The notes under the pieces are model-generated. The model had not been told where the DNA came from and did no database searches. It was given only the letters and a program-made list of their open reading frames with translations. Shown here piece by piece: positions 45,787-48,107 of a stretch of DNA of 64,000 bases. The translations under genes and the position numbers were made by a program. How positions within the stretch are numbered: the stretch's first letter is position 1; every line of letters begins with the position of its first letter. The DNA comes from Octopus vulgaris (lineage: Eukaryota): positions 8,804,001-8,868,000 of the forward strand of contig OX597832.1 of NCBI GenBank assembly GCA_951406725.2. Direction: 5' to 3'.

Positions 45787-47063
45787 TATAGCGGTGCAAA
45801 TTTAGAGTACACCCCTCCCTACCAAATCATGATAAATATACATTGAGAGTAAACAAATATTGGTGTTTATGTGTATATGTATATTTATGTGTGTGAGGAG
45901 TGTATGAACCGAGAAAATTGATATTATTTGCATAGATTTTGTGTGCAATATAACAATTTGGTTGATAATATCGTTAGAATGTTTATGCACACACAAAATC
46001 ACATATATGTATATATATATATATACATATATATACATATATATATATATATATATATATATATATATATATATACATGTATATATACATATATACATGA
46101 CTGTCTGTAAGTGTGTATGTGTGTGTACGTGCGTGAGTGTTTAATGCAAGCGGTGTGTCCACTAAACGGAACTGCATGCCATATCATCAAAGCTTTATTT
46201 TTATTGAGAGGAACAACTTCAGCGTCATAACTACATGCATACATAGTTTGGCTACATTGCAAAGAAAAAAAAAGACCGAAAGAATGGTGGCGGTTCACTA
46301 CAAAATCGATAATCAAGCTATTGTAATTTCAACGTTGTATTTCGACACTAATGTAAAATATTTCTGGCGTTTACTTCAAATGGATCTTACATGTGCGACA
46401 CAGGTCATAATAATGCCATATATTGATGCAGTATCTCTTGATCTCCAGACAGACTGAGAGTGAATAAGCTTAGACAAATTTGTGAATTATCTAAATAACA
46501 ATCAGAACTCTTCACATAATATTGTCAATTTGATAAGTATCTGCTAAAATGAAAAAATCAGATCCACCATCAAATTACACTGTGTAAACTGCCATACACG
46601 CTGGTTGTAATTTAATATTGATGAAAAAACATCAGTCTTCATATTTCCATTGTATTTTTTAACAACGTTTCACTGGAGATTTTATAAAATCTTAATGTAT
46701 ACATACGTATGCATCTGTGAATTGTTTGTCTTACGTTGAAGACAAAAGATATATTTTGCCTATAATGGAAATGTATTAGAAATTCGTTTATTTGTAATCT
46801 GCTGGAACCTTATGACATTTTAGTCAAACTAAAGGAAATATATATATATGTGTGTGTGTGTATGTATATATATATATATATACGTATATATGTATATATA
46901 TATATGTATATACATATTTATATACATATATATATATATATATATATATATATATATATATATATATATATATATATATATATATATATATATATATATA
47001 TATATATATATATATATATATATATATATACTTTATTTAAAGCAGCAGAAAATTCAACAAAAC

Positions 47064-47099
47064 CTGTTATTTGAGTTTCCGTTACCGTTCATCGGACAG
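47064..47099 (-). ncRNA. Minimal hammerhead motif, core CCGAUGA (inverted copy, slightly decayed)
   Basis: CTGT-CCGATGA-ACGGTAACG-GAAA-CTCAAA-TA-ACAG. Confidence 0.6.
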
Positions 47100-47115
47100 T
47101 TTTTGCTAGAAAAAA

Positions 47116-47153
47116 CTGTCCGATGAACGTTAACGGGAAACTCAGAGTAACAG
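47116..47153 (+). ncRNA. Minimal hammerhead motif, core CCGAUGA
   Basis: CTGT-CCGATGA-a-CG-ttaa-CG-g-GAAA-CTCAGAG-TA-ACAG: stem I CTGT/ACAG, GUA triplet. Confidence 0.72.
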
Positions 47154-48107
47154 GTTTTGTTGAATTTTCTGCTGCTTTAAATAAAGCATATATTATCTAC
47201 CACTGGTATTTGAGTACTCTTTTTTCCCACCTTCTTTCACATTCATGTGTTTACTCCGGTATATATGTATATATATATATATATATATATATATATATAT
47301 ATATATATATATATATATATATGTATACATATGTATATATATATATATATACATATGTATATATATATATGTATAGTATATATATATGTATATATATATA
47401 TATATATACATATATATACAGATATATATATATATATATATATATATATATATCCTTTAGTTTGACTAAAATATCATAAGATTGCAGCACAATACAAATA
47501 AACGAACTTTCTAATACATTTCGCTTATAGGCAAAATATATCTTTCGTTTTCAACGAACAACTCACATATGGTTACAGTGTCGTCCGTAGTATCCTCGGA
47601 AATGGGGCAGATCATCTTCGTGGAATCATTTCTTCAGGCGATATAGCATTAATGACTTTTTACCAGAGGAATGTTTATCCATTTTGACCAGTGTGAAGGC
47701 TAGTTGAATTTTGTGGGTATTTATGAGCTATGTTGATTTATTTTGCATCTACCACCACACGTATCTCCACCCCCATATAACCACCACTCCTTTCTTTCTT
47801 TCCTCCCATCACCTTCCCCTTCACCCCACTAAATACAAATAGATACCCACTTCAAGATTCAATTACTACTTTTTCAAAGGGATCTGATTCTTTCAAGCGT
47901 CCTGTGTTGGTATTCAGTTGAAGAATATATTTTAACATTTTAATTCCAATAGAATTCTGGTCTTATAACCACCTCTACTGATATTACGTGCTTTTAAAAT
48001 GTTTATTTAGATTTCAATTAATAATAACAGTTTTGTTTACATTTTGCTGTATGGCCAACATGTTCTGCGCAGAAGTTTTTTTTACTTATTTGAGATTTAT
48101 TTTCCCT

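Follow-up and report, generated by a model that had tools for sequence, protein, structure and literature searches.

The locus considered here raises the question of how a short piece of octopus DNA lying in a (TA)n tract came to carry a hammerhead ribozyme motif on each strand, head to head. It lies in a window of 64,000 nucleotides from Octopus vulgaris (GCA_951406725.2, contig OX597832.1, positions 8,804,001 to 8,868,000, forward strand), which is the whole stretch that was analysed. The original prediction, made from the letters of the window, offered two readings: the inverted-pLTR product of the integration of a Penelope-like element (PLE) reduced to its minimum, or a self-propagating, non-coding fold-back element. 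A search of the genome (2.8 Gb, 227 contigs) located the parent element, and the conservative reading was thereby borne out. The predicted anatomy, consisting of a palindrome, two hammerhead motifs (47064-47099 and 47116-47153), a 73-nt tail and (TA)n flanks, was confirmed and is made up as follows, in window coordinates. Papers are cited by accession number.

46838-47030, no strand: left (TA)n target tract; 78 of 91 sampled tail ends continue as TATA
47031-47107, minus strand: tail-less inverted arm, the end of the parent pLTR, 77 nt, stopping at the constant tail-start site
47064-47099, minus strand: damaged type I hammerhead motif with U4C, stem II one base short and stem III broken
47105-47110, no strand: junction G-CTAG-A, with a G·A mismatch bordering the self-complementary CTAG
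47108-47186, plus strand: tail-bearing arm, the sense pLTR end, 79 nt, 91-92% identical to both pLTRs of the complete parent
47116-47153, plus strand: Hydra-type type I hammerhead motif, predicted cut after 47149
47187-47259, plus strand: one-sided tail, 73 nt, which in full-length copies runs on into a 67-nt leader and then the ORF start
47260-47453, no strand: right (TA)n target tract

The whole insertion measures 229 bases, its mirror-image part (47031-47186) 156 nt, and the two arms are 3 substitutions and 2 single-base gaps apart; the gaps, lying within a hairpin, could be assembly errors. The plus strand is predicted to fold into a single long hairpin (-114.6 kcal/mol, z -18.5), and 0 of 200 shuffles were equally stable. 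A target-site duplication is unreadable within (TA)n. The element-bearing tract is itself flanked by a unique host segment of about 100 bp in inverted duplicate (46734-46835 and 47454-47560, 90%). This repeat was considered as a second element and rejected, since it has only these two matches genome-wide; the inverted host duplication around the TA tract is possibly the result of a fold-back event there.

The hammerhead cores are placed at 47088-47099 (minus) and 47116-47127 (plus), and both read CCGAUGA instead of CUGAUGA, a change designated U4C. The plus motif has the type I layout, with stem I CUGU/ACAG and a self-complementary stem III (self-duplex predicted at -9.4 kcal/mol), yet carries U4C and a stem II of only 2 bp. 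The minus motif has lost one base of stem II, has a broken stem III and fails the layout, so that the plus copy alone retains the layout of the family. At gathering score Rfam gave no match anywhere in the window, and neither motif formed a fold of its own when folded in isolation. Compared by eye, the layout of the plus motif is that of the Hydra-2_aMil pLTR hammerhead (PMC8557442, supplement S2). U4C was reported to reduce hammerhead activity in vitro (PMC3088659), and hammerheads with a self-complementary stem III are thought to be functional only as same-sense dimers (PMC4209133). Because stem III is self-complementary here, cutting would need a same-sense partner, and a hairpin transcript offers none. 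The CUGAUGA core is present in both pLTRs of the complete parent, U4C being carried by older subfamilies, and both hammerheads of the window copy are probably passengers of the pLTR.

A 26-mer from the tail end has 5,620 and a further 108 matches in the genome, at least 5,728 in total, against 0 for reversed controls. Some of these copies extend upstream via a 1.2-kb untranslated region into an ORF. The complete parent (L270) comprises a pLTR at 1026-1806, whose tail runs into the start of an intact ORF of 711 aa (1869-4001), and a second pLTR at 4417-5198; the two pLTRs are 98.9% alike and lie 3,391 bp apart, measured from pLTR to pLTR. The encoded protein combines a reverse transcriptase (DIIDFY, YRDD) with an endonuclease of the GIY-YIG type at its C-terminus (GVVY...YTG near residue 580). 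It has RWK at residue 37, DKT (a changed DKG) at 113, a linker CxCX5C (CNCKNESSC) at 562, CxxC (CRLC) at 667 and CxH (CRH) at 695; read by eye, the GIY-YIG core is without cysteine and CCHH is absent. A Pfam scan of the protein gave no match, and many of its homologues carry the precomputed domain PF26215, one of them PF01541. At E 1e-30 or better it matches 1,954 of 7,994 scored database proteins, and among the 120 such homologues listed nearly all are without a name. Of the 108 tail ends whose next base is A, C or G, 30 were read and none continued into the parent, in which T comes next.

RWK, DKT, CxCX5C, CxxC, CxH and the absence of CCHH are the diagnostics of the Hydra clade (PMC8557442). 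Since the longer copies lead into an ORF with every tested Hydra-clade motif, the window copy represents the shortest insertion class of a Hydra-clade family, and it is almost certainly the insertion of a Penelope-like element. The likeness to the clade as described by Craig et al. (2021, PMC8557442) extends to the (TA)n target and the pLTR hammerhead, whereas the unit of about 3.4 kb, with its 1.2-kb 3' region, exceeds the 'generally <3 kb' given there. The hammerhead is unlike that of Hydra-1_Obim, the sole cephalopod family in the table of PMC8557442, which makes the window family another one. The parent would thus be a new family of the Hydra clade, as judged from its sequence; the consensus files of PMC8557442 and Repbase may already contain it. 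Long head-to-head copies with identical ends were also found (L121, with a 3.5-kb palindrome, L122 and L123), and a single layout is shared by insertions whose lengths range between about 100 bp and 3.5 kb: the inverted arm ends at the tail start, the direct arm at the tail end, and (TA)n lies outside. In the subfamily of the window copy (CCGAUGA...CGGG) the arms reach the ORF in 2 of 30 examined loci (L224, L228).

The manner in which such copies are joined was followed in a sample chosen by position, namely the first 90 of 5,620 tail matches on contig C1 in genome order, of which one tail-to-tail locus was dropped to leave 89; arm ends were taken from local alignments and are accurate to a few bases. 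An adjacent inverted arm was found in 63 of these loci and was not detected next to the tail arm in 26 of the 89. The 63 two-armed copies show 56 different junctions, 38 copies having a microhomology overlap, 8 a blunt joint and 17 inserted bases. The outer end is constant, 51 of the 63 inverted arms ending at the tail start, and both hammerhead motifs are spanned in 28 of the 89 loci. The tail-less arm is the longer one in 30 two-armed copies, the tail arm in 13, and the arms are equal in 20; the start of one arm correlates with that of the other arm of the same copy (Spearman 0.42). Sixty-four loci have two nearly full arms, and a comparison of these arms at six diagnostic sites gave agreement in 353 of 373 cases, where random pairing would give about 164 disagreements; 12 rare variants are mirrored between the arms.

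Arm starts pile up within -2 to +5 of the A in CCATTCT (39 of 152; the adjoining 8-nt intervals contain 6 on the upstream side, binomial p 5e-7, and 20 on the downstream side). This motif, which lies 13 nt ahead of ribozyme stem I and which we take to fit the initiator consensus, is the putative RNA start site of the family. Contigs of four sequencing runs that may be RNA cover the element, and carry no information on strand, start or level. In 76 of 89 loci the tail arm reaches at most 10 nt upstream of the putative start, and in the other 13 it extends further upstream than that. Hammerhead cleavage was considered as the origin of the 5' ends and rejected, only 2 of 89 tail arms beginning at the cleavage site.

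Whether copies share one centre and one arm length had been put forward as a check, and the outcome goes largely against the novel reading: the G·A centre of the window copy does recur, with 250 exact matches genome-wide, but the 63 two-armed copies of the positional sample show 56 distinct junctions. A fixed centre was hinted at by the best-matching copies, all 30 of which share the length and ends of the window copy, having been chosen for likeness; it was rejected as a selection effect, tail-anchored copies being heterogeneous. The perfect form of the centre has 213 matches and the opposite perfect form 1. When 40 G·A loci were fetched out of 100 listed, 23 had the orientation seen in the window and 17 the flipped one, and at least three subfamilies were represented. 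From a master hairpin a single orientation confined to one subfamily would be expected, so both orientations across subfamilies argue against it, and the centre of the window copy appears to be a joint that is favoured, not one that is inherited.

These observations suggest how the insertion arose. In our judgement it was probably built on site, head to head, by two reverse-transcription events at the 5' end of a sense RNA. The element protein would cut both strands of the (TA)n tract; one cDNA would then be primed at the tail end and another at the tail start. The template would be an mRNA begun in the 5' pLTR, and the cDNAs would reach the 5' end of this RNA and run off, with lengths of at most about 155 and 84 nt, respectively. 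Their 3' ends would anneal via microhomology, with the self-complementary CTAG as the favoured joint; annealing there would leave two G·A mismatches, which could resolve to the centre of the window copy or to its flipped form. The protein of an anole PLE was shown in vitro to cut and extend both strands, starting at the two sites that bound the tail, and its reaction needs no ribozyme cleavage (PMC11167929). A transcript start within the upstream pLTR was reported for D. virilis (PMC2377424). Deletions at the palindrome centre after insertion could account for part of the junction variety and of the unequal arms, and arm-to-arm conversion could account for part of the arm matching.

A second palindrome (in L138) belongs to another family, the protein of which is related (37% identity) and carries DKT. 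This sister family has 473 exact motif matches genome-wide, and its first 30 arms were sampled (loci L275-L304). Fourteen of the 30, from 11 insertions, are spliced, with a short first exon joined to the acceptor of a 1,818-nt GT-AG intron; in one of them the donor used lies 4 nt farther along, and all of them stop within 23 nt ahead of the donor. Another 14 lack the splice and are longer, their alignment extending 135 nt or more upstream, and 2 are of other kinds. The precise splicing of the short arms implies that the template of these stumps was spliced sense RNA, copied at its 5' end. Splicing was not seen in arms of the window family, for which the sister stumps support a sense-mRNA template by analogy. 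The sister family (G000:C3:63968300-63978200, L309), which is Hydra-like, has a first exon of about 20 nt and an ORF carrying an insert rich in asparagine, a feature also reported for PLEs of rotifers.

Taken more generally, we lean towards the view, without being far from even odds, that such stumps record PLE integration itself: a dimeric protein, twin priming at the ends of the tail with one start per cut strand, a strong stop at the 5' end of the mRNA and annealing of the cDNAs, by which heteroduplex scars such as the G·A centre would be left, with spliced mRNA giving rise to stumps only and long copies deriving from unspliced read-through RNA. If true, no antisense template would be needed to account for the inverted pLTR, the presence of a tail at one end only and intron retention.

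The same parent might have produced the palindrome differently, by fold-back self-priming on a cDNA or on an antisense template as proposed in PMC3846280, the centre being deleted or inverted later. In its favour, perfect centres are common (213), arm starts within a copy are correlated, and palindromes are known to be unstable. The route is nevertheless improbable. A tail-less arm that exceeds the tail arm, as in 30 of the 63 copies, is not the snap-back of a single tail-primed cDNA unless a deletion followed; the G·A orientation of the window copy (23 of 40) requires run-through on the tail-less arm; later correction should yield both perfect forms, yet their ratio is 213 to 1; and the spliced short copies of the sister family require a sense template. 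On these data, two cDNAs copied from sense RNA are preferable to the self-priming on an antisense template put forward in PMC3846280.

The novel reading of the original prediction, that at least some copies are hairpins transcribed whole and re-inserted by the protein of the parent, has the 250 exact centres on its side, together with the uniform length and ends of the 30 best matches (selected for likeness). The changes confined to the left arm of the window copy recur in 1 of 29 best matches (L030), and one locus (L011 1102-2244; G000:C22, near 11.378 Mb) holds a tandem array of four complete palindromes plus an incomplete one, with about 30 nt of TA between neighbours. The array units have common private changes, including a broken plus core, and the array may represent a local duplication or an assembly effect. 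Together, L030 and the array indicate that whole units are sometimes copied, probably as DNA. Self-propagation as RNA is contradicted by the 56 junctions in 63 copies and by the small number of exact centres, 250 as compared with 5,728 tail ends. Both orientations of the centre are found, several subfamilies carry it, and variants in one arm are mirrored in the other. Furthermore, hammerheads with U4C are less active in vitro (PMC3088659), the minus motif has suffered damage and a cleavage-site start was seen in only 2 of 89 tail arms, so that we consider this reading very unlikely. Still less credible, to the point of being nearly negligible, is a miniature inverted-repeat DNA transposon landing in TA: inverted repeats and TA flanks are indeed present, but the sequence is the pLTR of a reverse transcriptase-endonuclease element whose parent is at hand, the tail lies outside the repeat at one end, and the inner ends vary while the outer ends are fixed.

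Viroid-like rod-like circular RNAs carry ribozymes in both polarities, and the window copy resembles them in its hammerhead motif on each strand and its rod-like fold. Its motifs are, in contrast, mirror copies of one DNA segment with a joint that varies by copy. With non-LTR retrozymes (PMC7229834; bioRxiv 10.64898/2026.07.22.740005) it shares short length, lack of coding capacity, a type I hammerhead and kinship to PLE pLTRs; retrozymes are head-to-tail tandems of hammerhead units, whereas the window copy is solitary and head-to-head. A close likeness is to insertions of EN+ PLEs (PMC3846280, PMC8557442, PMC11167929), which have head-to-head arms, a 5'-truncated inverted pLTR, a one-sided tail and a hammerhead per arm; Penelope-13_HM likewise has one hammerhead on each strand (PMC8557442). 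The window family differs in its tail of 73 nt, as against 30-40 nt, and in the dominance of the short class (76 of 89 tail arms). Among the titles listed in literature searches outside subscription papers and Repbase there was no short palindromic PLE family and no PLE twin priming, and those searches likewise listed neither a scar left by mismatches nor stumps that are spliced.

The head-to-head architecture itself is already in print (PMC3846280), and the window copy as an object is ordinary retroelement debris; its value lies in the data. How PLEs make inverted repeats and retain introns is still an open question in the literature (PMC3846280, PMC8557442, PMC11167929). Thousands of young copies allow three definite predictions, namely a fixed RNA start, cDNA-cDNA annealing via CTAG that leaves mismatches on its flanks, and splicing in short copies but not in long ones, and an intact parent ORF of 711 aa is on hand for in vitro work. 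Matches of the 'ambisense double hammerhead' kind in animal genomes are usually a PLE by-product of this sort.

A few minor observations concern the parent and the neighbourhood of the insertion. In L129 and L270, TA-like runs (TGTA or TCTA; CATAT) come after both priming sites and could base-pair with the end of a (TA)n tract that has been nicked. At 61061-64000 the window contains an inverted repeat, 99.6% identical and with each arm 1,356 bp long or more, which encodes pieces 33-42% identical to the parent protein and appears to be a young head-to-head insertion of another PLE family. A frameshifted relic of a further related PLE lies at 31909-33332 on the plus strand (35-49% identity to residues 221-700 of the parent protein), and a minisatellite of 30 copies of a 48-bp unit, with 97% matches, occupies 50551-51990.
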